From Chloroflexota bacterium (GTDB lineage Bacteria; Chloroflexota; UBA11872), in the NCBI GenBank assembly GCA_965247475.1, contig OZ252016.1, positions 1,951,625 to 2,015,624 on the forward strand: a stretch of 64,000 nt of DNA, written 5' to 3'. The notes under the pieces were generated by a model. The model ran no database searches and was not told the origin of the DNA. It was given only the letters and a program-made list of their open reading frames with translations. The translations under genes were made by a program, and so were the position numbers. Shown one piece after another: positions 1 through 12,224 of the stretch. Numbering within the stretch: position 1 is the stretch's first letter; every line of letters starts with the position of its first letter.

Positions 1-677
1 CGGCGCCAATCGTCGTCGTCGAACATAGTGTCGGCGGTAAACGCTCCGGTCAGCAAGCCGTGCGCGAGTGACCCGTAGGCCATGATTTCGATCCCGTGCT
101 CGCGGCAATACGGAATGATGTCGGCCTCGCGCCGGCGGTCGAGCTGGTGATAGCCGATCTGATCGGTGGCGATCGGCGCCGCGGCGACGAATGCCTCGAG
201 CCGATCGAGCGGCAGGTTGGAGACGCCCAGCTGCCGGACCTTGCCCTCGTCGACCAGCTCGCGCATCACGTCGGCCGTCTCTTCCACCGGCGTCTCGTAG
301 TCCGGCCAGTGATGGATGTAGATGTCGATGTAGTCGGTGTCGAGGTCACGCAAGCTGGCCTCGCAGTCCTCGCGGACCGATGCGCGACGGGAATCGCGAT
401 AGTACTTGCCCTGCCCCTCGTGCCAGCGGATGCCGAACTTGGTGGCGATCACGATCTGGTCTCGACGGCCCGTGAGCGCGCGCGCGAGCACTTGCTCCGA
501 ATGACCCATCCCGTAGCCGGCGGCCGTATCGAAGAGATTTACCCCGGCGTCCAGGGCGGCGTGAATGGCCCCAATCGATTCGTCGTCAACGACCGCGCCG
601 TACTTCTGAGCGCCCATCGGCCAGCCGCCGAAGCCGACGACCGACACCTCGCGGTCTCCAAGAGCTCGGTATTGCAT
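1..677 (-). CDS. Aldo/keto reductase (3' end runs off window)
   Basis: Manual translation from ATG 677: MQYRALGDREVSVVGFGGWPMG...NLFDTAAGYG.GHSE..L...IATKFG...SLRDLDTDYIDIYIHHWPD...GKVRQLGVSN, the AKR signature motifs. Not in the ORF track because it has no stop in the window. Confidence 0.92.
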   Translation of the reverse strand, partial: MQYRALGDREVSVVGFGGWPMGAQKYGAVVDDESIGAIHAALDAGVNLFDTAAGYGMGHSEQVLARALTGRRDQIVIATKFGIRWHEGQGKYYRDSRRASVREDCEASLRDLDTDYIDIYIHHWPDYETPVEETADVMRELVDEGKVRQLGVSNLPLDRLEAFVAAAPIATDQIGYHQLDRRREADIIPYCREHGIEIMAYGSLAHGLLTGAFTADTMFDDDDWR

Positions 678-883
678 GTGGAACGGCCTCGTTGCGGGGC
701 GCGCTGCGCAGCGTGACCCGCGGCTCACGGCGCGTCAAGTTCGGAACGCGGTTCACGCAACTCAGGGGCGAAGTGTGGCCTCGCATAGGCGCCGCTGGTA
801 GCATGGCGAACCGGTTCCGGCTGCGTGACGAACGCGGACGGGACCCCATTTCTCGATTCAACCAAGCGAGTTCGAGGACATCT

Positions 884-1474
884 GTGGCATTCGCGGTGAT
901 CGCCAGCGGCGGTAAGCAGTTTCGCGTCGCGCCCGGCGACGTGATCGACATCGAGCGCGTGGACGGGGCGACGCCGTCGATCACGTTCGCGGACGTGCTG
1001 CTCGTGTCGGACGAGAAGCAGGTCCAGGTCGGCACGCCGCTGGTTGCGGGCGCGGCCGTTCGCGGGACCGTGCTCGGCGAAGTGAAAGGCCGCAAGATCC
1101 GCATCCTGAACTACCAGCCCAAGAAGCGCCATCAGCGGCATATGGGCCACCGGCAACGGTACACGCGCGTTCGGATCGACGAGATCGACACCGCGGCGGC
1201 GCCGCCCCAGGCCACGGCTACGGCCGCGCCGAAGGCGCGGGCGGCGGCGAAGCCGGCCGCGAAGCCCACGGCGGCGGCCACGCCGCGCGCCAAGGCCACG
1301 CCGGCGGCGAAGCCGACCAGGCCCTTGGCCGCGGCCAAGGCAAAGGCAAAGGGCGGCGCGAAGGCCCGGGGCGTGGCAAAGGCAAAGGCGGCGCCCACAG
1401 GGAAGGGCAAGCCGGCGGCCAAGGCGAAGCCCAAGGGCAAGGCAAAGGCGAAACCCAAGACGACGGGGAGCTAG
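884..1474 (+). CDS. rplU: 50S ribosomal protein L21 with long Ala/Lys/Pro-rich C-terminal extension
   Basis: [13 protein letters not shown]...[10 protein letters not shown]...[22 protein letters not shown] is L21. Start placed at GTG 884 after GAGGA. Directly upstream of rpmA. Confidence 0.96.
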
Positions 1475-1512
1475 ACGGCGCGGCAGCGCGCCGCTGAGAA
1501 GGACGCAGCGGA

Positions 1513-1767
1513 ATGGCACACAAGAAAGGTCTCGGCAGCTCCCGCAACGGGCGCGACAGCAACCCCAAGATGCTGGGGGTCAAGCGCTTCGCCGGCGAGC
1601 TTGTGGGCGTCGGTGAGATCCTGGTGCGGCAACGCGGCACGAGGCTGTTGCCGGGGCCAAACGTCGGCCTCGGCCGCGATCACACGCTGTTCGCGCTCAG
1701 CGACGGCCACGTCGTCTACGAGCGCGTCCGTGGACGCGTTCGCGTCCGGGTGGCCGCGCCCGCGTAG
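1513..1767 (+). CDS. rpmA: 50S ribosomal protein L27
   Basis: [24 protein letters not shown]...ILVRQRGT...[11 protein letters not shown]. Confidence 0.99.
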
Positions 1768-1779
1768 CGCCGAGCGATT

Positions 1780-1855
1780 GGGCCGATAGCTCAGCTGGAA
1801 GAGCGCCGCACTCGCATTGCGGAGGTCGTGGGTTCGAATCCCATTCGGTCCACCA
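1780..1855 (+). tRNA. tRNA-Ala (anticodon CGC)
   Basis: 76 nt cloverleaf: acceptor GGGCCGA/TCGGTCC with G3:U70 Ala identity pair, anticodon arm CCGCA-CTCGCAT-TGCGG, GGTTCGAATCC T-loop, encoded CCA. Confidence 0.97.
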
Positions 1856-1906
1856 GACTGGACAAAATCAAGAACCTTCGTCTTGAGGTTCGTTCTGGAC
1901 CTATAG
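1850..1906 (+). repeat. 57-bp att-like repeat, copy 1 (overlaps tRNA 3' end)
   Basis: CCACCAGACTGGACAAAATCAAGAACCTTCGTCTTGAGGTTCGTTCTGGACCTATAG; contains dyad GAACCT-N8-AGGTTC. Confidence 0.85.
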
Positions 1907-2117
1907 TCATGCCTCGACCCCGACATCGGCGATCGATGGCACCCCACATGGTCCGAGGCTGCCTCACCCTTGGCATGAAGCCGAGTTTCTCTGTCCACTT
2001 TTGGTGATGCCTGGTGATTCCATATACGTAGAGCTATCATCCCGAACTCATCACCGATTAGACTGACAGGGCACACATCTTTGTCACCCCTTAGAAAACG
2101 GACGGAGGTATCGCGGA

Positions 2118-3044
2118 ATGCCAAAGGATTTCATCTCCTTTCTAGATTGGTCCGCAGACGATCTAAGCGATCTAGTGAAGGCTGCGCAGACGTTCCGCCG
2201 GTGGTGGGTAAAGAAGGAGTCTCCACCAGTACTCAAGGGGCGGCGCATTGCCCTGATGTGGGGTGCGACAGGCTTTCGAAACCGAGCTGCCTTCGAGTTG
2301 GGCATAGCCGAACTCGGTGGCATCCCAGTTGAGATTCCAGGCTCAATCGATGCGAGGGAACCTCTAGAAGATGTGGCGCGATACCTGGGAAACTGGTTCG
2401 ACGCTATCGTCGCAAGAACAGCGACCCACGAGCAAATGCTGAGGCTGGCACGTTCCGTTCGAGTTCCGGTGATAAATGCCAGAACTTCGTTTAACCACCC
2501 CTGCGAGATCCTAGGGGACTTGGCCTATGTCAGGGAACAGAGAGGCGACTTGAACGGCTTGCGTGTTGCATTCATTGGCGAGGCGACGAACCTCGGTCAC
2601 TCTTGGTTCGAGGCCGCAGCAAGATACCCAATACACGTCGTCCAAGTGTGCCCGGCGGGATATGAGGTCAAAGCCCAGTTCCTTCAAAGGATCGCTCGCG
2701 AGGCCGAAGGAGAAGTCGCCGTTTCTCAGGATATGCACTCAGCTATCGCTGATGCGGATGTGATCTATACCGACTGCTGGCCGGCTAGAGCAACCGACGA
2801 AGAGCACCAGAGGATAAGGGACTTGTTCCTCCCTTACCAGATCACGGAGGAGATCCTGCGGGCAAGTCCGCAGGACGCTCTCTTCCTTCCGTGTCCGCCC
2901 GTCCACAGGGGCGAGGAAGTGTCTGATGGCGCCATGAACTGGCCTGGCTGCCGTGTCTACGAGGCGAAAGAGTACCTGCTGCACGCGCAGAATGCCCTCC
3001 TAGTCTCGCTTCTCAACTACAGTGAGATGTCCCAGACTGTCTGA
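2118..3044 (+). CDS. Ornithine carbamoyltransferase-like transcarbamylase with atypical motifs
   Basis: KDFISFLDWS, ARYLGNWFDAIVAR, PVINA...HPCEILGDL, ADVIYTDCW, CPPVHRGEEV match the OTC/ATC family layout. Codon usage is visibly less GC-rich than the flanks. Confidence 0.85.
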   Translation: MPKDFISFLDWSADDLSDLVKAAQTFRRWWVKKESPPVLKGRRIALMWGATGFRNRAAFELGIAELGGIPVEIPGSIDAREPLEDVARYLGNWFDAIVARTATHEQMLRLARSVRVPVINARTSFNHPCEILGDLAYVREQRGDLNGLRVAFIGEATNLGHSWFEAAARYPIHVVQVCPAGYEVKAQFLQRIAREAEGEVAVSQDMHSAIADADVIYTDCWPARATDEEHQRIRDLFLPYQITEEILRASPQDALFLPCPPVHRGEEVSDGAMNWPGCRVYEAKEYLLHAQNALLVSLLNYSEMSQTV

Positions 3045-3246
3045 GGTCGGAGTAGGGAGGACAGGCCGGTTTCACCTTCGAGGGATCTGAGATCAATCAC
3101 GTGCTCCACGTGGGCCAAGTAGATGTATCTCTCGCCCTTGGGACGGGCGGCACCCTCTGCATCTTCGCTGGCGACATGTCTTCGGCGAGGCCATCGATCT
3201 GTCGCTAGCAGAGTTGGCCAGTCTGACATTGCTGGCGGGGCTCGCT

Positions 3247-3303
3247 CCACCAGACTTGACAAAATCGAGAACTTTCACGCTCGCGTTCCGGTCGGCGCTG
3301 TAG
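3247..3303 (+). repeat. 57-bp att-like repeat, copy 2
   Basis: CCACCAGACTTGACAAAATCGAGAACTTTCACGCTCGCGTTCCGGTCGGCGCTGTAG; 27/30 identical to copy 1 over the first 30 nt and colinear to CTRTAG. Confidence 0.85.
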
Positions 3304-3357
3304 GCAGAACCGGGCCGCGGAGATCGGTCTCGTCAGCGGCTCCGCCCCGTTGCCAAT

Positions 3358-4212
3358 CTAGTCACCCATCGCGGGCGACCAGTTGTAGATCCTCGCGAGC
3401 GTTCCGCCCATGAGTGCCGACCGCTCTGAATCCGAGAGCCGGTCGGTAACCCGGAACGCCTCGACGCCCTGCTCGTACGTCAAGAGCTCTACCGCTCGGG
3501 TCCAGTCGGTGCCCCACATGCATCGATCAAAGCCGAACGCGTCAAATACCCTGCCCAGGGGATCCCAGATGTCCGGGTACGGGAATGCCTGATGCGACAG
3601 GGTACAGGCCCCGGAAATCTTGATGGCTATGTTGCCGCATTCGGCCAACGACAGCACGTTGGCCAGGTCGGCAAACGGTTCCGGCTGCGCTGGCGGCTCA
3701 AAGGGCTGGACCAGACCCACATGATCGACCACCAACTGCGTGTCTGGATGGCGGCGAGCTAGCTCGCGTACAAGAGGCAGCCTGCCCCAACACATGAGAT
3801 TCACCGGAACGCCGGCCTGGGCGGCCGTGGCGAGTGCACGACTGAGACCTGGGTCGTCGGCGTCGAATGGCTGGGCCGTAAGCATGATGCGAACTCCCAC
3901 CACACCCGGCCTCCCGGTCCACTCAGCTATCTCGTCAGCGACCGATTTCGACTGCGGATCAAATGGCTTGATCAGGGCGAACCGGTCCGGGTGTTTCGCG
4001 TATACATCGAGCGCGTAGCTGGCATCGTAGCGATACAGCGAGAACGGCGAAACCAACAAGGCTCCGTCGACGCCGACTGCGTCCATCGCCGCCACCATAT
4101 CGTCGCCCGTGACCTCATCGGGACCCTGCAAGAATCCGGTCCAAGGACGTTCAGGGCGGTTGCGCTCGTAGGCATGTACTTGTGAGTCAATTGTGGGAGT
4201 CCGAGTCGCCAT
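3358..4212 (-). CDS. Amidohydrolase family 2 protein (lactonase/decarboxylase-like)
   Basis: IDSQVHAY, VVDHVG, NIAIKISG, FGFDRCMWGTDW motifs. Confidence 0.88.
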   Translation of the reverse strand: MATRTPTIDSQVHAYERNRPERPWTGFLQGPDEVTGDDMVAAMDAVGVDGALLVSPFSLYRYDASYALDVYAKHPDRFALIKPFDPQSKSVADEIAEWTGRPGVVGVRIMLTAQPFDADDPGLSRALATAAQAGVPVNLMCWGRLPLVRELARRHPDTQLVVDHVGLVQPFEPPAQPEPFADLANVLSLAECGNIAIKISGACTLSHQAFPYPDIWDPLGRVFDAFGFDRCMWGTDWTRAVELLTYEQGVEAFRVTDRLSDSERSALMGGTLARIYNWSPAMGD

Positions 4213-4494
4213 CGTCCTTCTCCTCGTGATTCATAGCTGTCGGGTTTGTGTGTGAGGTTCTACTCCAAAGATCCCGGGAGTTGTCGACTGGGACATATCA
4301 GTCTACACCTGAACCGGGCTGCTATTGGCAGACAAGGGTTGTGGCCAGCGACAAGCGGAGGTTTCCGGGGCCAGCTCAGTACATCCCTGCTATCGTCTGG
4401 TTGTATCTCGTAGTCTTGGCTCGAGTACTTCCGCCACTATGAAATCAACGGCCCAACCACCCACTGAGAGGTCCTGTCTACGGTCTCCATAGGC

Positions 4495-4551
4495 CCACCA
4501 AGCTACACAGAATCAAGATCCTTCGTGCGACGGTTCGGCCTCGCCCTGTAG
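4495..4551 (+). repeat. 57-bp att-like repeat, copy 3
   Basis: CCACCAAGCTACACAGAATCAAGATCCTTCGTGCGACGGTTCGGCCTCGCCCTGTAG; 26/32 identical to copy 1 over the first 32 nt, ungapped to CTGTAG, preceded by a degenerate tRNA-end-like CCATAGGCC. Confidence 0.75.
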
Positions 4552-4615
4552 ATGATGCGAGAGCTGCCGCAGGTGTCCGAGCCAGCGACCTCACCCACGC
4601 TGAGGCCGGCGCAAC

Positions 4616-5758
4616 TCACTGAGGAGTCGCGTCGATCCTCGATTCAATCTCATCGAGAAACGATGGGTCGTAGGTTTCATGGACGTGGTTGCTGTTCCAG
4701 AGGCCGGAGCGGCGAACACGCTCGCGGTCGCTGCAATGGCCGAGCCACTCCGTCGACGGCCCGTCGGCGGCAGGCCGGCGATAGCCGCTCAACAGTGCGA
4801 TGGCATTGCGTTCGATCAAACCGCGGTTGGACCCGGGGCCGGGGGCGTCGCTCACGTTCAGCCAGAGGAACGGCATCTGACCGATGTACTCGCTAACGCG
4901 GGTCTCGAGGTCCGCCTCGGCCTCGTTCACGGCAGCCCTGTCAACGCCCAGCCTCCGTGCGGCTTCGCCGGCGCTTCCGGCAACGCCCCACGACTCCGGC
5001 TGAGGGATGTCGTTTCGTTTGGCCTGGGCGATGCCCACGATCAGTCGGAAGATCGATCCGCGATGGTTCCCACCACCGGATCGGGAACTGCCGCGATGTT
5101 GAGACAGCCGATCCCACAACGTACTTCGCGAACCGCTCTTCAGCCCATGCGTGCCGACCCGAACGACCCGTGGCCCGCCGCCCGTCCCCGATCGGGCTTC
5201 ACCGCTCTCATGGAAGAAGTACACGCCGCGCGGCGGCCAGTTCATCCCGCGGCGGCAGTCTGCTAGGACCCTGGGGCCACCGATCCGCGCGGCGAGGCGG
5301 TCGAGCAGCTCGTAGAAGCGGATGGTGTCGGCGAGCCGATCAGCCCGAAGCTCGCTGGTCAACCAGCTCAACTGCTCGCCGATTCTCAAGCCTTGCATCG
5401 GGACGGAGACGACCAGACCACGACTTCGCAGCGACGGTGTCAGGAACTCGCGATAGCGTTGACCGGCCAGGAATACGACGGATCCGACGCCGTCCAGATG
5501 CGGCTCCAGTTGGGTCAGCACCTTAGCCGCCCAGCGGCGGCGGTCCGCCACCGGCATGGTGTTCAGGGTGAGATCGTACGGCGCGATCATCTCATCGGGC
5601 TGAACCAGGCCGTGTTTAGCGGATAGGACAAACCAGGGCCAACCCGTTCTGTCCGCATAGGCGCGGGCCTTGCGGAACCAGGGGGAGGTGTACAGGTCTC
5701 TCGCGGGTGCGGGCGACGACCGTTTCCGCCCCACGCAGGACACCAGGCAAAGGCTCAT
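4616..5758 (-). CDS. DUF6884-like domain fused to a putative GIY-YIG-like nuclease domain
   Basis: N-term LVSCVGRK...ARDLYTSPWFRKARAY...VLSAKHGLV...APYDLTL; C-term GVYFF...VVRVGT...LWDRLSQH. Start at ATG 5758 after GGAGG. Confidence 0.7.
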   Translation of the reverse strand: MSLCLVSCVGRKRSSPAPARDLYTSPWFRKARAYADRTGWPWFVLSAKHGLVQPDEMIAPYDLTLNTMPVADRRRWAAKVLTQLEPHLDGVGSVVFLAGQRYREFLTPSLRSRGLVVSVPMQGLRIGEQLSWLTSELRADRLADTIRFYELLDRLAARIGGPRVLADCRRGMNWPPRGVYFFHESGEARSGTGGGPRVVRVGTHGLKSGSRSTLWDRLSQHRGSSRSGGGNHRGSIFRLIVGIAQAKRNDIPQPESWGVAGSAGEAARRLGVDRAAVNEAEADLETRVSEYIGQMPFLWLNVSDAPGPGSNRGLIERNAIALLSGYRRPAADGPSTEWLGHCSDRERVRRSGLWNSNHVHETYDPSFLDEIESRIDATPQ

Positions 5759-5840
5759 TCGATGGGTGCCTCCTTCCGGCGCTCGGGCATACTCCCCTGT
5801 TCTCGAGTTCCGTCTCGCGGAGCCCGCTCTCAATCGTCTC

Positions 5841-5922
5841 GCCGGTGCTCGGTCTCCGTCCGGTTGCCGCGTGCCGCCTGCTGGCCACCACCGGCCTCGG
5901 CGGCTGCGGACGGCGCCTGGCG
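5841..5922 (+). repeat. Diverged 82-bp duplicate of the glycosyltransferase 3' region (8356-8437)
   Basis: Ungapped manual alignment gives 71/82 identity. Confidence 0.85.
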
Positions 5923-6032
5923 CGGCATGGGACCGGGCACGGTCGACGTGGGTCCCGCCACCCGTTCGCGGCGGTCGACGGTAGAGCGCGGTTCGCGAAA
6001 GCGCCCTGTATGCGCCCGAGCCGGATATGTTC

Positions 6033-6373
6033 CTGGCCCCCCGGCATCCGCCGGGGTGACGGGGTGGGGCCTGTCAAACCATCCACCCTGAGCCCTTCGA
6101 CAGGCTCAGGGTGGATGGGGGGATACGCGCGGGGGCGCCACGAGGCCCCTTCGATGGACTCAGGACAGGCCCTTCGACAGGCTCAGGACATGCTTTCGCC
6201 GGTCCGGGGGCCATCAGATTCCTCGCTCTGCTCGGCATGACGTTGAGGTTCATTTCGTCCTCGCGCAAACTCAGTCCACCCTCTGTCATCTCGAGCCTCC
6301 CACCTCGTCATCTCGAGCTGCCACCATGTCATGCTGAGCGGAGCGAAGGCTTGTGCTGAGGCTCTCGAAGGGA
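6033..6373. repeat. Composite intergenic palindromic repeat cluster (modules E, A, A, A, B and inverted copies)
   Basis: CTGGCCCCCCGGCATCCGCCGGGGTGACGG; CCTTCGACAGGCTCAGG x2 and CCTTCGATGGACTCAGG; GCCGGTCCG...AGATTCCTCGCTCTGCTCGGCATGAC; GTCATCTCGAGC x2. Confidence 0.8.
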
Positions 6374-6380
6374 TCACACG

Positions 6381-7190
6381 CTGATCGATCAGGCGCGCCT
6401 CGCGGGGCGCTGGTGGCGCTGGCTGACACTTGCCGCCCTGCTCGCCATCTGCGTGTGGGGCGCGCTAAGACTCGCGACTGCACCGTGGTACGTGCGCATC
6501 GCCGGACCCGTATCTGGCAGCTTCGCGGCCGGGCCGGTCAACCAGATTTTTTCGGCGGGTCAGACATTTGCCCAGGCGGGTGCGCCGGTCGCCAGAATCG
6601 ATCTCAAGCTCGCCCAGGACAGCTCCGAGAGCTCAGCCGAGGCTCTGGTTGAGATCCGGGAATCTGTGGCAGGCCGATCCCTGCGGTCGGGCTCGCTGCC
6701 ACTGCGCCGTGGGGTTTTCTGGTACGCACTGGAGTTTCCGCCGATCACGCAGGCCGAAAACGGCACCGGCGAACTCTACGTTGAGATTCGCACTCCGGAG
6801 AGCCCGGTCCTGAGCGACCGTGACCGCGTGGCTGTGTTCTACGAACAGGGTGACCGCTACGCAGACGGCCGCATGCACGCACGAGGCGAACCGGCCCGAC
6901 TCGATTGGGACCTTGCGTTTCGGATGTACCGCCCGGCGCAGCTGCGCGAGGCGCTCGCCGTGATCGACCGCTGGGGACTCGTAGGCGCCACTGCGCCGTG
7001 GGTCGTAGCGGCGGGTGCGGGCGCGGCCGGCGGCGCGGCGGGATGGCTGGTATGGCGCTGCGACCGCGCCGGGACGCGCCGCTGGTGGACACCGCTGCTC
7101 GTCGCGCTGGCGCTCCTCGCGCTGGCTCTGCACTTGCCAGACGCTGTGGCAAACCCGGCGATCGTCACGGTCCCAGTCGAGCTTCATTGA
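6381..7190 (+). CDS. Hypothetical membrane protein
   Basis: Frame is open from 6381 (first GTG at 6453; start uncertain). N-terminal hydrophobic anchor, soluble beta-rich middle, two C-terminal TM segments. Stop overlaps the next start. Confidence 0.6.
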   Translation: MIDQARLAGRWWRWLTLAALLAICVWGALRLATAPWYVRIAGPVSGSFAAGPVNQIFSAGQTFAQAGAPVARIDLKLAQDSSESSAEALVEIRESVAGRSLRSGSLPLRRGVFWYALEFPPITQAENGTGELYVEIRTPESPVLSDRDRVAVFYEQGDRYADGRMHARGEPARLDWDLAFRMYRPAQLREALAVIDRWGLVGATAPWVVAAGAGAAGGAAGWLVWRCDRAGTRRWWTPLLVALALLALALHLPDAVANPAIVTVPVELH

Positions 7191-8530
7191 TCGTACCGGC
7201 GGCGCGCAGCCCCCTCCCGGGGCTGGTCGTGCTCGCCCTGGGGGTAGCGACTGTCTGGCTGGTGCTGACACCATTCGCCTGGGACAACGACGAGCAGGGT
7301 CACTACTGGACGGCGCGTGACATCTACACGGACGGCCACCTGCCGTCCGCCGCCGATTTCCCGTCGATCATCGTTCCTCAGGCTCCGCGCGAAGGGGCCG
7401 GCCTGTTCCGCTACCACGCCCTGCCGCCTACCTATTACATGGTGCTGGCCGGTCTGTTCAACTGGCAGCCGGGCACCGACGCAGGCCTATTCCCCGGGGT
7501 TCTGATCGGGCGTGCCTTCTCGGCCCTGCTGTACGTGGTTGCGGTGGTCGCCGCGTACCGGATGGCCTGGTTACTCACGGGTGAGGATGAGCGCACGGCG
7601 GGGTTTCTGGCGGCGGCGTTTGCGCTCATTCCGCAGGTTGCGTCCACCGGCGCCTCGATCACGGCCGACGCGTTCGCGCTGGCGTCGATCAGCGTCCTGG
7701 GCTGGGCGAGCGCGAGGGCTGCCTCGCGCGGATGGGATCGATCGTCGGTAGCCATGGTTGGATTGGCCGCCGCTTTGGTGCTGATGAGCCGGCCAACCGC
7801 CATGCCAATGTTGATTTTTCCGGCGGTGTTACTGGCGATTCATGCGGGACGCAGCGCGCGACGCTGGCTTACCAAAGGCACGACGATCGCGGCCTTGGCG
7901 ATCATTCCCAACCTCTGGTGGATGGTCCGAAGCCTGGCGCTGTTCGGTGAGCCGTTTGGGTCGACCGCGCACGTGCGCGCCATGGCCGAGCAGGGCATCT
8001 ACACAGCCTCGAATGAGTTTAGTCGGTACAAAGCCACGGAAGCCGGCCTGGACGGTTTGCATGACCTTCTCTTTTCCACCGACTGGCTGCTGCGCTTCCA
8101 TACCCGCATGTGGTTCACCGGTCGGTACGAGCAACTGGGCTTGGTGGGCTGGGCGCTGGTCGGCAGCCTGGCGCTTGGGGTAGGGATCGCTCTCGTAGTC
8201 GCGCTCCGGACGACCCGGCCCGACGCCTCCAGATTGCCTGCGGCGGCGGCCCGTGTGAGCCCGCTGACGCTCTTGGCCGTGCTGGCCGCGTCCGCCACTA
8301 TCCCGGCGCTCATGAGCTTGGAGTACGGGGCCTTCGTGGTCGGCCGGTTCTCGACGCCGGTGCTCGGCCTCTTTCTGATTGCCGCGTTCGGCCTGCTGGC
8401 CGCCACGGGCCTCGGCGGCTGGGGACGGCGTCTGGCGGCGGCCTTTGCCGCTCTGATGGCCGTTACGCATCTCCTCTTCTGGGTCGGATTCCTGCTTCCG
8501 GACCTGGCCCTGGAAGTACTGCCGACATGA
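7187..8530 (+). CDS. GT-C fold glycosyltransferase (ArnT/PMT, family 39-like)
   Basis: Multi-TM protein with WDNDEQGH acidic motif after TM1, YHALPPTYY, GRAFSALL, ITADAFA. TTG start overlaps the upstream TGA. Confidence 0.75.
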   Translation: MIVPAARSPLPGLVVLALGVATVWLVLTPFAWDNDEQGHYWTARDIYTDGHLPSAADFPSIIVPQAPREGAGLFRYHALPPTYYMVLAGLFNWQPGTDAGLFPGVLIGRAFSALLYVVAVVAAYRMAWLLTGEDERTAGFLAAAFALIPQVASTGASITADAFALASISVLGWASARAASRGWDRSSVAMVGLAAALVLMSRPTAMPMLIFPAVLLAIHAGRSARRWLTKGTTIAALAIIPNLWWMVRSLALFGEPFGSTAHVRAMAEQGIYTASNEFSRYKATEAGLDGLHDLLFSTDWLLRFHTRMWFTGRYEQLGLVGWALVGSLALGVGIALVVALRTTRPDASRLPAAAARVSPLTLLAVLAASATIPALMSLEYGAFVVGRFSTPVLGLFLIAAFGLLAATGLGGWGRRLAAAFAALMAVTHLLFWVGFLLPDLALEVLPT

Positions 8531-8587
8531 TGGACGAGCGGCCGCGTTATCCGCCCGGAGGAGTCGATGCGCGGCTGCGGTGCGGCG

Positions 8588-8686
8588 ACCATGAGATTCC
8601 CTTCGATGGACTCAGAGCAGGCTCTCGGCTTCGCCTCGGAATGACACCGCCTGATGGCGACATCCCCACCTGAAGGTCGGGCCACC
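8588..8686. repeat. Intergenic repeat cluster (A module nested in B module, plus D module)
   Basis: ATGAGATTCC-CTTCGATGGACTCAG-...CTTCGCCTCGGAATGACA and CCCCACCTGAAGGTCGGGCCACC. Confidence 0.75.
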
Positions 8687-8691
8687 TGGCA

Positions 8692-9272
8692 ATGGAACGT
8701 GACGCTTGGAATCAGCTCTACGTCGGCGAGGAGCCTGACTCAGGCACCGGCACTGAGGAGCTATTCCTCGCAGTGGCACGTGAGTTCGAACCAGGCCGCG
8801 CCCTCGACTTGGGGTGCGGTCCCGGCACCCTGTCACTGGCGTTGGCCGAGATAGGGTGGCAAGTCACCGGCGTTAACTTTGCCGACGCCGCCATTGATCT
8901 CGCCCGAACGGCAGCGGCCGAGCGCAGGCTTGACGTGACGTTCCTCGTGGCGGACATCGCCCACTGGAGTCCGCCCGAGCCGTTCGACTTCGTCGTGAGC
9001 GCCTACGCAATGCCGCCCGGAGGCGCACAGAGGGACGCTGCGCTGGCGACCGCGATACATCGCTTGCGCCGGGCGGCAGAGTTGTCGTCGCCGAGTGGGA
9101 CCGATCAATGGCAGACGCCTGGAGTTTCATGAAGCCTGACGATCTTGTTTCCCTTGACAAGATCGTCTCAGGGCTGGAGGGACTCACGATTGACCGTGCT
9201 GACGTGATTAGCGTCGATGCCCACGGCGAACGGGCTCGGAGCGTTTTCGTTCAGGCGCACAAGCCCGGATAG
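8692..9272 (+). pseudogene. Class I SAM-dependent methyltransferase, frameshifted near 9060
   Basis: RALDLGCGPG and FDFVVS motifs. The continuation SLAPGGRVVVAEWD...FVQAHKPG* lies in another frame and ends at TAG 9270-9272. Confidence 0.8.
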
Positions 9273-9448
9273 CGGCCAACGGAGCATGCGCAGTCGCCAT
9301 CGGGGCAGTGGCAGGGCTGCTCGGTTGCTTCGGCGCTGACATCGCAACCTCCAAGGGGGCGATTCCACTACGGGTCCGGCGGCTCGACAAATGTCGTGGC
9401 GTTGTTCGCTCGCTTCGCTTCGACCTCACGTTCGTCCCGAGTCCGCGA

Positions 9449-9780
9449 ATGGCCCTCGCCCGCCGGAGGCCACTCAGCCGGAACTACCCGCAGCTCAGGC
9501 GCGAGCACGGCGAGCTCGAGCGCTTGGTGGACGATCCGCTACTGGACGTGTACCGTCTCAGGAAGTGGCCATCCCCGTGCCCCAGGACGCCACCAATACC
9601 AGAAGATGTGTGCCAAGGAGAAGGTAGTAGCCCTGTCTCCCATCTCCACGCAAGACGTTCTCACAGAGCTAGGCACCCCTACGATCAGCAACTACTGGTG
9701 GCTCAGACGGCAGGATCATCCCGAAGGTTCCTCCGTATCAGCGACGACTGTCTACCAGATCCTTCGCGGGGAGGGCCTTC
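9449..9780 (+). mobile_element. Degraded IS transposase N-terminal (HTH) remnant, IS481-like
   Basis: Fragments across frames: ...CPRTPP...EKVVAL...ELG...WLRRQDHPEGSSVSATTVYQILRGEGL resemble the transposase HTH region. Confidence 0.55.
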
Positions 9781-9964
9781 CTAGAAGCTCTGAGACCCGG
9801 GTACTCCCATCGGATCCCGCTGATACACCTGTGGCAGCGTCCCCTCCGATTCCTACTACGATACCAGTGGCATAGATCGCTGCGATGGCCTCCTTCATCG
9901 ACCTGCAAATACCTCTCAGCTTAGACGGCGTGGTGGGCTTCTCCAACAGGGATATGCTCACTCC

Positions 9965-11158
9965 ATGACCAAACAAGAACACCAGATCGAAGTCAAAGAC
10001 GTATGGAAGATATTCGGCAATAAACCAGAGCGCGTTCTCGAGCCTGAGCATGTGACAAAGAGTCGCGCGGATCTCCAGGAAGAGCTGGGCGTCGTGGTCG
10101 CACTGCGGAACATCTCATTCGCCGTCAACGCCGGACAGATCTTCGTCGTGATGGGACTGTCCGGCAGCGGCAAGTCAACGCTGGTGCGCTGCCTCATCCG
10201 GCTCATAAAAGCCAGCAGGGGACAGATCTACTTCGATGGTGAGGACATCCTCACGTACTCTCCGGAACAGCTCCTGCAGTTCCGGCGCAGCAAGGTTGCC
10301 ATGGTCTTCCAACACTATGCCCTTCTCCCGCATCGCCGCGTGCTGGATAACGTGGCATACGGTCTGGAGATACGAGGCATGGAAAAGGAGGACAGGTACA
10401 ACACGGCGTCGGAGACCATCGAGACCGTGGGTCTGAAGGGCTGGGAAGACTACTACCCCAGGGAGATGAGCGGCGGGATGCAGCAGCGGGTCGGACTTGC
10501 GAGGGCGTTGGCGGTGAACCCCGACGTACTGCTCATGGACGAGCCTTTCAGCGGCCTTGACCCGCTCATACGAAGGGAGATGCAGGACCAGCTCGTCTCC
10601 CTTCAGTCGGAACTTCACAAGACCATTGTCTTCATCACGCACGACCTGAACGAAGCTCTCAAAGTCGGTGACCGCATCGCCATCATGCGGGACGGGGAGA
10701 TCATCCAGGAGGGTTCGCCGGAGGAGATCGTAACGCTGCCGTCCGACGACTACGTAGCCGAGTTCGTGCGGGACGTGGCGAGGGCAAAGGTAATCCGGGC
10801 GAAGGCGATCATGCGGGAGCCGGACGTGGTGGTGTACGAGAGGCAAGGTCCCCGCACGGCGCTGCACGCCATGATGAATCACGGCATCGACGCGGTGTTC
10901 CTGATCGCGCGGGACTTCACGCTGCGTGGGATTCTCACGCGGGAGCAGGCCAGGGAGCTGGCATCGCAGCGCACGGCAACGTTGGATGGCGCGCAGGTCG
11001 TCGGGGCGGTGACCGCGGACCTCGACGACCTTATTGAGACGATAGTCCCGAAAGCAGCGGAGACCGAGCACCCGATCGCCGTGGTTGGCAGTAACGGGAG
11101 CCTGTTGGGGGAGATTCCCCGGGGGGCCGTGCTCATGGGTATTTCCGATAGCGATTAG
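9965..11158 (+). CDS. proV: Glycine betaine/proline ABC transporter ATP-binding subunit with CBS domains
   Basis: GLSGSGKST Walker A, MSGGMQQRVGLARAL, LLMDEPFSGLDPLIRREMQD. Confidence 0.93.
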   Translation: MTKQEHQIEVKDVWKIFGNKPERVLEPEHVTKSRADLQEELGVVVALRNISFAVNAGQIFVVMGLSGSGKSTLVRCLIRLIKASRGQIYFDGEDILTYSPEQLLQFRRSKVAMVFQHYALLPHRRVLDNVAYGLEIRGMEKEDRYNTASETIETVGLKGWEDYYPREMSGGMQQRVGLARALAVNPDVLLMDEPFSGLDPLIRREMQDQLVSLQSELHKTIVFITHDLNEALKVGDRIAIMRDGEIIQEGSPEEIVTLPSDDYVAEFVRDVARAKVIRAKAIMREPDVVVYERQGPRTALHAMMNHGIDAVFLIARDFTLRGILTREQARELASQRTATLDGAQVVGAVTADLDDLIETIVPKAAETEHPIAVVGSNGSLLGEIPRGAVLMGISDSD

Positions 11159-11168
11159 GAGGTTTGGC

Positions 11169-12224
11169 ATGTCCCAAACCGAGGACCCTCAGTCCGGCGC
11201 CGAGACCTGGGCGCGGCGCGTCGCACCGGGCGCCGTCTCGCCCATTTACCGCTGGGCGGCGGGGGTGATAGTGGTGGCGGCAGTGCTGGTGGCGAGTGTG
11301 CTGGTCTGGGGGCCGGAGATGGACTTCCCGACCACTGTATCCAGCATCGAATCCGATGCCGTTACCCTCGATCGAACCGTGCGGGACGTGACTGGAGGAG
11401 CCGTTGACGACTCGGTGGACTGGATTACCAGGGAGGCCTCCTGGCTGTTCGACGGGCTGAGCACGGCGGTCACCTATGCGTTGGTCAATATCGAGGGGGC
11501 CCTGAACTGGCTGCCCTGGCCGACCTTGCTGGTGGGCCTTGCGCTGGTCTCGTTCGCGGTGGGTCGATGGAGCCTGCTGGTCTTCACGTCGCTGGCCCTG
11601 CTGTTCGTCGGCTTCATGGACCTTTGGGAGAACACCATGGACACCATCGCCCTGATGGTGGTGGCGGTGTTCATCGCGGTGTCGATCGGGCTCCCGCTGG
11701 GCGTCCTAGCCGCCCGCAACCGGACGGCGGACTTTGTGCTGCGCCCGATCCTGGACGGAATGCAGACGATGCCCAGCTTCGTCTACCTGCTGCCGGGCAT
11801 CCTCTTCTTCGGGCTGGGGAAGCCGGCGGGCATCTTCGCGACGATCATTTACGCGGTGCCGCCGGTGATACGACTGACCAACGTGGGGATCCGCCAGGTC
11901 TCCGCCGAGACCGTCGAGGCCGCCCGCTCCTTCGGCGCCTCGCCCTCGCAGATACTCACCAAGGTCCAGATTCCCCTGGCGCTGCCCACCATCATGGCCG
12001 GCATCAATCAGACCACGATGATGGCCCTGGCGATGGTAACCATCGCCAGCCTGGTGGCGGCGGGCGGCCTGGGCGACAACGTGAATCGGGCTCTCCAGAA
12101 GAACGAGCCCGGGAACGGCCTGCTGGCCGGGTTGGCAATTGTATTCCTTGCCATCATTATAGACCGGTTGACGCAATCGGTCGCCAGCGGCCGACACGAG
12201 GCGTTGCGCGCGGGTGTAGGATAG
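11169..12224 (+). CDS. proW: Glycine betaine/proline ABC transporter permease
   Basis: PILDGMQTMPSFVYL, PPVIRLTNVGIRQV, EAARSFG, GINQTTMMALAMV. ATG 11169 follows GGAGG. Confidence 0.93.
   Translation: MSQTEDPQSGAETWARRVAPGAVSPIYRWAAGVIVVAAVLVASVLVWGPEMDFPTTVSSIESDAVTLDRTVRDVTGGAVDDSVDWITREASWLFDGLSTAVTYALVNIEGALNWLPWPTLLVGLALVSFAVGRWSLLVFTSLALLFVGFMDLWENTMDTIALMVVAVFIAVSIGLPLGVLAARNRTADFVLRPILDGMQTMPSFVYLLPGILFFGLGKPAGIFATIIYAVPPVIRLTNVGIRQVSAETVEAARSFGASPSQILTKVQIPLALPTIMAGINQTTMMALAMVTIASLVAAGGLGDNVNRALQKNEPGNGLLAGLAIVFLAIIIDRLTQSVASGRHEALRAGVG

Follow-up and report, generated by a model that had tools for sequence, protein, structure and literature searches.

Repeats at a tRNA-Ala gene of a Chloroflexota bacterium as probable att modules of tRNA-targeting large serine recombinase elements

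Tandem genomic islands downstream of ssrA have been described in Dehalococcoides, together with the integrase DsiB, a CcrB-like large serine recombinase (LSR) (McMurdie et al. 2011, BMC Genomics 12:287, PMC3146451). The target of these islands is the T-loop of a single tmRNA gene, the repeat is 20 bp long, and the islands are of phage-genome size, with a vcr cargo of ~7 kb. The 3' end of dsiB always overlaps the att site, with the stop codon outside the island, and, as the authors proposed, a complete dsiB may exist only in the circular form or beside a neighbouring island. The integration module consists of six genes (for DsiB, DsiA, a RecF-like protein, ParB, Mom, and a large protein); fifteen islands, approximately half, were without it and were proposed to be cis-mobilisable (PMC3146451). 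In the present study, a 64-kb stretch of DNA from a Chloroflexota bacterium (contig OZ252016.1; hereafter the window) was analyzed, in which three direct repeats of 57 nt (R1, R2, and R3) align without gaps and start at the CCACCA of tRNA-Ala(CGC). We consider it probable, at about 80%, that these repeats are att modules or scars of a family of LSR integrative elements that insert at tRNA tips in Dehalococcoidia-type Chloroflexota.

By published architecture, the ssrA island/DsiB system is the closest published relative of this family. Both combine an LSR, the 3' end of a tRNA-like gene, and tandem islands with direct repeats in the same bacterial class, and in both the 3' end of the recombinase gene lies over the att site and the C-terminus changes with the integration state. 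The systems differ in target, since the elements here use the acceptor tip of the tRNA (CC, positions 71-72), in eight tRNA species or more, with all 17 anchored copies at tRNAs and not at ssrA. They also differ in the site itself, here a two-armed palindrome of 57 to 107 nt conserved over >100 species-level genomes, and in organization, with the recombinase gene and the cargo genes in both orientations and units as small as 0.7 to 1.4 kb. No description of tRNA-targeting LSR cassette arrays in Dehalococcoidia was found in the literature searched, the ssrA paper being the nearest, and the LSR family is apparently undescribed.

Other platforms share some of these features. The staphylococcal cassette chromosomes (SCC and SCCmec, with CcrAB) resemble the array in serial serine-recombinase insertion at a gene 3' end, tandem arrays, short repeats, and recombinase-less pseudo-SCC units, whereas their target is the protein-coding rlmH, two recombinases are used, the islands are tens of kilobases long, and the site is not inside the recombinase gene. 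Integrons likewise have small, mostly single-gene units with their own sites, a fixed anchor, and strain-variable content, but they rely on an IntI-type tyrosine recombinase with attI and Pc beside the array, a folded single-strand attC with low sequence conservation, and co-oriented, promoterless cassettes; here the enzyme is a serine recombinase, the site is a conserved double-strand palindromic sequence, and genes lie in both orientations. In the cis-mobilizable elements (CIMEs) of Streptococcus (ICESt1/3) and the tycheposons of Prochlorococcus, tRNA-anchored arrays contain non-autonomous units that keep their att sites and are served by a recombinase in trans. The recombinases of those systems are of the tyrosine type, and the repeats duplicate the 3' part of the tRNA, whereas here the repeat is element DNA downstream of CCA. 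For the archaeal integrases of the Sulfolobus spindle-shaped virus type, which are tyrosine recombinases of archaeal viruses, attP lies inside the int gene and integration splits the gene mid-body; the likeness is that the recombinase C-terminus differs between the free and the integrated state.

The repeat and the end of the recombinase gene

The repeats are spaced 1397 and 1248 bp apart, and R1 is 89% and 77% identical to the other two copies over the 35-nt family. A degenerate 30-nt repeat pattern was found three times in the window against 0.00 expected (100 shuffles), and a profile built from ~120 foreign copies matched only R1, R2, and R3 in the 64 kb, with E values of 3e-17, 1.5e-14, and 3e-10. 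The alignment, the shuffle expectation, and the profile thus uphold the initial annotation in its claim of three gap-free 57-bp repeats at this tRNA. Its view that the repeat is more than a duplicated tRNA core agrees with conservation to +57, counted from the first C of CCACCA, beside tRNAs of many kinds.

On its plus strand the repeat encodes PP(N/D)(W/L)TKSRTFxLxFxLxL-stop, a true LSR C-terminus. The plus and minus frames share wobble positions, and codon-like variation alone cannot pick the frame. A stop codon at +54 to +56 was present in 79/119 distinct copies (TAG in 52, TAA in 15, and TGA in 12), compared with 54/119 that kept the Tyr of the minus frame. The initial annotation had seen a recombinase C-terminus in the minus-strand reading Y-x4-N-x3-K(V/D)LD-x-V. 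Derivation from a recombinase gene, through that gene's own att site, was borne out, but the strand and frame were not: the minus-strand letters are present without being a conserved coding frame, and the coding frame is plus (PPDWTKSRTFVLRFVLDL-stop in R1). The minus-strand letters KVLDFVQSGG, for which a search of recombinase ends had been suggested, are explained by the palindromic site as a mirror image of the left half-site, which encodes SVLDFV(K/Q)SG in the LSRs of loci L079 and L092. The minus strand as a gene start (M-KVLDFV...) was ruled out, as these open reading frames (ORFs) stop after ~25 codons and are reverse complements of LSR tails.

At locus L015, the plus frame continues upstream as an open frame of 565 codons, and the protein has the Pfam domains Resolvase, Recombinase, and Zn_ribbon_recom and ends in NGSVVSSVNGS-PP-DLTKSRTFALRFRLAV-stop. 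A search with this LSR gave >5000 homologues. Among the best 120 of them, ~16 end with the PPxxTKSRTF tail or its start, and ~20 end in antisense translations of tRNA 3' ends, such as GGPGWTRTNDLGLIRTAL-stop, meaning that the LSR sits integrated next to a tRNA. Many others in this set end in GGPxxT(E/V)LRTFRWEVxL-stop or GGPxLTVDRTVFEMWLGxL-stop, endings that are reverse complements of recurrent left flanks of internal modules. LSR C-termini came in three forms, namely, tail type, antisense-tRNA type, and read-through. Left arms had at one stage been taken for truncated plus-strand LSR bodies throughout; this was revised, as most are complete tails of minus-strand LSRs, with R3 a plus-strand LSR end.

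Recombinases with Resolvase, Recombinase, and zinc ribbon domains were found at the family loci L015, L092, L129, and L130. At L129 the LSR gene is the last gene of the element and reads into tRNA-Ala(ggc), and the element further carries TrbC, VirB4-like, coupling-protein-like, and relaxase-like genes and a ribbon-helix-helix (RHH) gene; at L130 two convergent LSR reading frames meet at the site. In these two elements the RHH and LSR genes follow type IV secretion system and relaxase-like genes, and no small second serine recombinase was present in the gene tables. Autonomous family members are conjugative elements of large size from Dehalococcoidia-type Chloroflexota. Among 2875 neighbouring ORFs, serine recombinases formed recurring clusters, and no tyrosine integrase cluster recurred.

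The three repeats of the window can be read against this gene end. R1 comprises the right half-site (P') at 1852-1879 followed by the last 9 LSR codons and the stop, with 72-81% identity to LSR C-termini (tblastn). The plus frame of R3, VLSTVSIGPPSYTESRSFVRRFGLAL-stop, matches the last 26 codons of LSRs such as P0066, VLSTVHVGPPDLTKSRTFSLTFRLAL-stop, at 61.5% identity over 26 aa (tblastn, E 9e-5). R3 has both arms, its left arm (4456-4494) giving a P-arm profile match with E 4.9e-6, and the left arm of R1 is the tRNA. That of R2 has decayed or been displaced, and a P-like TTGGCCAGTCTGAC lies ~21 nt too far left.

Site architecture and the module family

The att site is contained within the 3'-terminal ~26 codons of the recombinase gene. 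It is an imperfect palindrome of ~52 bp, with two ~24-bp arms around a GGY-CC-ACC core, and reads GGTTCTTGATTT(T/C)GTC(C/A)AGTC(T/C)GG-(T/C)-CC-ACCAGACTTGACAAAATCAAGAACC. The left arm matched the reverse complement of the right arm at a mean of 9.9/24 positions, compared with 5.6 in the control, and the best cases were L079 (22/24) and L100 (17/24). The GGTTC of the tRNA T-loop lies at -19 and that of the element arms at -25, so that the former is six bp closer to the centre, an offset resembling that between the attB and attP half-sites of serine integrases. The GA(A/T)C-N12-GTTC dyad of the initial annotation is present, but an attC-like hairpin was ruled out, as the fold of GAAC-N12-GTTC was no more stable than shuffles (z -0.6 to +1.3). 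No covariation was found in this dyad over 119 distinct copies, and the module sequence is almost invariant over 30 nt.

Exchange at the centre of the site was apparent in nine pairs of loci from different genomes that have a common right flank and unrelated left flanks. Five of these pairs share 0.8 to 7 kb of cargo at 90-97% identity, and the other four share ~150 to 560 bp. Homology starts between -17 and 0 in the five mapped pairs, and the P' haplotype follows the right flank, with 0-2 differences compared with 4.4 in the background. In one case, the cargo found after tRNA-Met at L068 recurs after an internal site at L104, with homology from -2. Pairs with a common left but not right flank differ from position 5-6 onward. 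Taken with the homology starts of the right-flank pairs, this divergence indicates an exchange point at or beside CC.

The distribution of the module was examined with the pattern CCACCA-N6-ACA-N-AATC-N-AGA-N-C-N-TTC (20 bases), which was scanned against species-representative genomes; from the pattern length and database size we estimate ~1 chance match. The scan, a search of relatives also proposed in the initial annotation, gave at least 120 loci. Among the matches listed, all but two were from Chloroflexota, mostly Dehalococcoidia metagenome-assembled genomes (MAGs), many of them from sponges. The two others were a chance hit in a Pasteurellaceae coding region and a genuine tRNA-adjacent copy in an Acidimicrobiia (Actinomycetota) MAG, where the module directly follows tRNA-Ala(tgc) (L052, 4330-4390); this copy suggests that the element family has crossed phyla. 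The same scan of viral contigs gave 0 matches and thus no sign of a phage origin. In metagenomes with the window organism, Logan word depth was 500 to 8000 at module positions and 5 to 30 in the flanks.

Conservation of the module extends from approximately -25 (weakly to -40/-50) to exactly +57 and then falls to background. Of 140 profile matches, 17 adjoin intact tRNAs (Ala-cgc/tgc/ggc, Met, Ile, Lys, Val, and Glu), always in the same register. Because the modules adjoin tRNAs of so many kinds, the conserved part past CCA is element DNA and not tRNA. Arrays recur, with two or three co-oriented copies spaced 0.7 to 5.3 kb apart in ~20/120 loci. The loci were retrieved as 8-kb blocks, so that long spacings are censored and the distribution of inter-module sizes is biased. 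Sixteen of the 25 inter-module segments are ≤1.75 kb, and most of these have one main ORF, in either orientation; for the reason of this censoring, the size distribution is no evidence for purpose-built cassettes. Products encoded in the segments include Cu/Zn superoxide dismutase, S-adenosylmethionine methyltransferases, glyoxalase, haloacid dehalogenase-type hydrolases, aldo-keto reductase, and an RDD membrane protein, and larger units adjoining intact LSRs carry type I restriction-modification genes.

These features can be assembled into a mechanism. Strand exchange would take place at the CC corresponding to tRNA positions 71-72, with A73-CCA supplied by the element, and the T-arm and acceptor 3' strand of tRNA-Ala would serve as the left, attB-type half-site. 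Since the site lies inside the last ~26 recombinase codons, integration at the tRNA tip leaves the right arm, the last 19 LSR codons, and the stop next to the tRNA, and this remainder is R1. Later elements may have entered the existing sites, so that units came to lie in tandem with each junction marked by a module (R2 and R3). Subsequent loss of the recombinase genes and most of the element DNA would leave single-gene units of 1.2 to 1.4 kb that still have sites, and such units could move or excise only through an LSR acting in trans.

Cassettes and strain variation at tRNA-Ala(CGC)

Four other assemblies of the same species (L121 to L124) were retrieved by exact-protein look-up; in blastn blocks, their identity to the window is 89-98%, mostly 94-98%. 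All five assemblies differ at tRNA-Ala(cgc), with breakpoints at the tRNA end and inside modules, so that gain and loss of cassettes between strains, for which the initial annotation had suggested a comparison, does occur at this tRNA. Cassette 1 (Table 1) is carried by the window, L123 (frameshifted), and L124 and is absent from L121 and L122, and cassette 2 is carried by the window, L121, L123, and L124. L123 and L124 have four modules and an extra recombinase-less unit of 2635 bp between the tRNA and the ornithine carbamoyltransferase (OTCase)-like unit. Within this extra unit lie an sCache_2 gene and a collagen-like ORF, and the 3' end of an LSR gene persists there as an inverted remnant. 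As both R3 and this unit hold recombinase remnants, at least some units are probably derived by decay, and at least part of the array is a decay product and not a set of purpose-built cassettes. The precise presence or absence of the 2.6-kb unit suggests that recombinase-less units still move in trans.

Table 1. Features of the array, its flanking genes, and related units in other assemblies and loci
Feature	Position	Strand	Description
rplU	692-1474		
rpmA	1513-1767		
tRNA-Ala(CGC)	1780-1855	+	ARAGORN
R1, attL-type module	1850-1906	+	tRNA half, CC core, right half-site P', and LSR gene end
Cassette 1	1907-3246	+	OTCase-like gene, GC 0.57
OTCace_N and OTCace gene	2118-3044	+	Pfam
R2, P' and LSR tail	3247-3303	+	plus frame APPDLTKSRTFTLAFRSAL-stop
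Cassette 2	3304-4455	-	Amidohydro_2 gene, GC 0.61
Amidohydro_2 gene	3358-4212	-	Pfam
R3, complete two-armed site	4456-4551 (repeat 4495-4551)	+	left arm, CC core, degenerate P', and tail
DUF6884/GIY-YIG-like fusion gene	4616-5833	-	GC 0.66, genome-like
class c units	L123 (reverse complement) 5857-8520; L124 5495-7760		
class c, other loci	L011, L019, L020, L033, L041, L044, L055, L056, L073, L075, L088, L091, L092		

Comparison of the modules located the gain or loss of the 2635-bp unit. R1 is identical to module M1 of L123/L124 over the 30 nt of P' and to their module M2 from +30 onward, with four mismatches between R1 and the P' of M2; this places the junction between +26 and +30 (TTC). The right flank of M1 is a recurrent sequence, termed class c, that was found at 13 other loci. 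A class c unit consists of P' (30 nt), a conserved spacer of 140 to 205 nt, and then an inverted LSR or remnant, the spacer being the reverse complement of a 46-codon C-terminal extension of L092-type LSRs whose stop abuts +30. Class c joins modules at +27 to +30 and not at CC, and across genomes it shows no linkage with the P' haplotype. The right end of the unit resembles a degenerate 3' fragment of a tRNA. A known RNA at the class c flank, such as a group II intron end, was considered and dropped, since Rfam on 18 related loci gave one tRNA only.

The remaining assemblies show other rearrangements. L121 is without R1 and the OTCase unit and has 361 nt of other DNA after the tRNA, followed by degenerate R2 and R3. 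At 12091-13022 of L121, a stray tRNA-Ala piece of 42 nt, from the 3' part, meets the region of the DUF6884 gene at the microhomology GCATTGCG; past this joint lie ~840 bp with a 187-aa ORF (no Pfam match), after which the 3' end of the DUF6884 gene occurs a second time in diverged form. R3 differs by ~25% between L121 (11902-11958) and the window, compared with ~6% in the surrounding DNA, an excess that could reflect either gene conversion from other module copies or relaxed constraint. In L122, a low-GC island of 3.3 kb (8573-11988) follows tRNA-Ala(cgc), encodes an 827-aa SMC_N/AAA_23/AAA_15 ATPase, and is flanked by a 100% identical duplication of ~100 nt that includes the entire tRNA gene. 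The arrangement resembles the product of another integration system using the same tRNA within the species.

The gene content of the array was as initially annotated, with one unrelated gene after each repeat and gene identities confirmed by Pfam. The third gene, the DUF6884 fusion, is only a candidate cassette, as its GC is genome-like and no right-hand att site was found. Similarly, the reported drop in GC holds for the first two units (0.54-0.63 over 1800-4600, compared with 0.65-0.74 in the flanks) but not for this third gene. The DUF6884 fusion is a single 405-aa ORF in the window only, the gene calls in L121, L123, and L124 being fragments of 86 to 140 aa. The OTCase-like gene is intact in the window and L124, whereas in L123 a frameshift gives ORFs of 182 and 160 aa. 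A 92% identical allele of this gene was seen at higher depth in run X6. Homologues in other Chloroflexota are 84-91% identical and lie in unrelated contexts, one of them directly after a tRNA-Val.

Further features were noted around the array. The ribosomal protein L21 of the window (692-1474) has a C-terminal extension of ~100 residues that is rich in Ala, Lys, and Pro and is encoded by short tandem repeats. No tmRNA was detected by ARAGORN. An 83-nt repeat, 87% identical, occurs at 5840-5922 and 8355-8437 and represents a stranded C-terminal piece left by a paralogue of the gene at 6905-8530, which encodes a DUF6020-like membrane protein. The 3.9-kb segment 6072-9939, which includes a methyltransferase gene (8692-9132), does not occur at this position in L121 or L123, and the gene order of L124 suggests that it is missing there too; in L123, part of it (8638-9367) is inverted ~6 kb away. 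Repetitive extragenic palindromic (REP)-like modules, for example CCATCCACCCTGAGCC...GGCTCAGGGTGGATGG, are located at 6079-6196 and 8599-8625, with Logan word depth far above that of the flanks.

Weighing the readings and significance

Several observations weigh against the reading of the repeats as att modules of a mobile LSR family. No LSR-like sequence was found anywhere in the 64-kb window (tblastn, E<1e-3), a relaxed tblastn of the window gave only three LSR tails of 16 to 28 codons, and no integrase is listed by Pfam in the first ~20 kb, where the array lies. To this extent the initial annotation, which saw no integrase in the window, is upheld, and the window units are therefore non-autonomous family members. 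No right-hand terminal site (left arm plus native flank) was found beyond R3. The sites are not uniformly maintained, as R2 is without its left arm and both R2 and R3 are strongly degenerate in L121, and this decay, together with the missing LSR, speaks against continuing mobilisation in trans. The junction of the 2635-bp unit, whose gain or loss is the one clean case within the species, falls away from the CC centre, indicating either a second crossover point or a different mechanism. No flanking modules were found at the OTCase homologues of other species, and movement of the OTCase cassette as a module-bounded unit is unsupported beyond its own species. Finally, no trustworthy excised circle or empty-site junction was found in the Logan contigs of runs X4 to X9, in which contigs break at repeats. 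One apparent back-joint, 3278->1884, had a depth above that of the organism and is probably another module copy. The att-type nature of the sites and serial site-specific integration at one tRNA, both proposed initially, are nevertheless supported by the module family, the palindrome, and the exchange at its centre.

It is possible, if doubtful, that the single-gene units are bona fide cassettes with one complete site each, captured and shuffled by resident LSRs at tRNA tips in the manner of an integron. The short inter-module segments of 0.7 to 1.75 kb, most with one accessory-enzyme ORF and flanked by complete palindromic sites, would fit such a platform, as would the long arrays implied by the small fraction of modules that are tRNA adjacent (17/140). 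One cargo was also shared by two genomes, following a tRNA in the first and an internal site in the second, and a recombinase-less unit is polymorphic within the species. The segment sizes are, however, biased by the 8-kb loci, the recombinase-gene remnants in R3 and the 2.6-kb unit point to decay, no cassette was found bounded by modules on both sides in two different contexts, and classical LSRs recombine attP with attB only. Integron-like cassettes, as initially suggested, are in any case not matched by a serine enzyme, an unfolded palindromic site, and genes in both orientations. A serine-recombinase counterpart of the integron may be imagined more tentatively than the att-module reading itself. 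In it, LSRs of resident conjugative elements would routinely capture, stack, excise, and exchange single-gene mini-elements at many tRNA tips, these mini-elements having no recombinase and one complete palindromic site each, made up of 3' tails of recombinase genes, and a second exchange point 28 bp away (+27 to +30) would let one element class enter another's site, many of the hosts being sponge symbionts.

It appears unlikely that the modules are purely fossil, that is, dead scars in a locus where nothing is mobilised and strains differ by ordinary deletion or by homologous or short-homology recombination. The lost left arm of R2, the heavily mutated R2 and R3 of L121, and its joint at GCATTGCG would all be expected from decay, as would the frameshifted OTCase gene of L123 and the lack of both an LSR in the window and a circle junction. 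Set against this, strains with and without the 2635-bp unit differ by a segment whose ends are exact to the base and lie at one and the same position in two modules, and the switch falls within the last 3 nt of a 30-nt imperfect repeat, which is unlikely for homologous recombination. Exchange of flanks between genomes clusters at the palindrome centre, and intact, two-armed, sharp-edged sites persist beside many recombinase-less cassettes. The initial annotation had set its cassettes against an origin of the repeats as ends of large, decayed integrative and conjugative elements; this applies in part, as the autonomous members are large and conjugative and R3 retains the final 26 codons of a recombinase gene otherwise deleted, but the content of the locus is still strain variable.

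Tyrosine-recombinase or integron sites (attC-like), or a structured RNA or a terminator that was duplicated along with the tRNA end, are very improbable: R1 does contain a 6-7-6 core-like dyad (TCAAGA-ACCTTCG-TCTTGA), one clean strain difference maps to its spacer, and R2 and R3 lie 3' of minus-strand genes, but the hairpin, covariation, and Rfam results are negative, the plus frame with its conserved stop is the C-terminus of real LSR proteins, and it is serine recombinases and not tyrosine integrases that recur among the neighbouring ORFs.

Gene-cassette platforms are known for tyrosine recombinases, as integrons, and tandem islands of serine recombinases are known at ssrA in Dehalococcoides and at rlmH in staphylococci. 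With the att-module family, platforms of the serine-recombinase type also reach ordinary tRNA genes, and do so throughout a bacterial class that is largely uncultured. The rewriting of the recombinase C-terminus by integration, into a tail, an antisense-tRNA peptide, or a fusion with the neighbour, is a natural example of a testable regulatory switch. LSRs that read the T-loop and acceptor tip as a half-site and tolerate many partner arms would be of practical interest as integration tools, and the conserved module can be used as a search key for accessory-gene hot spots in MAGs. For the organism of the window, the OTCase-like and amidohydrolase genes are explained as strain-variable imports.

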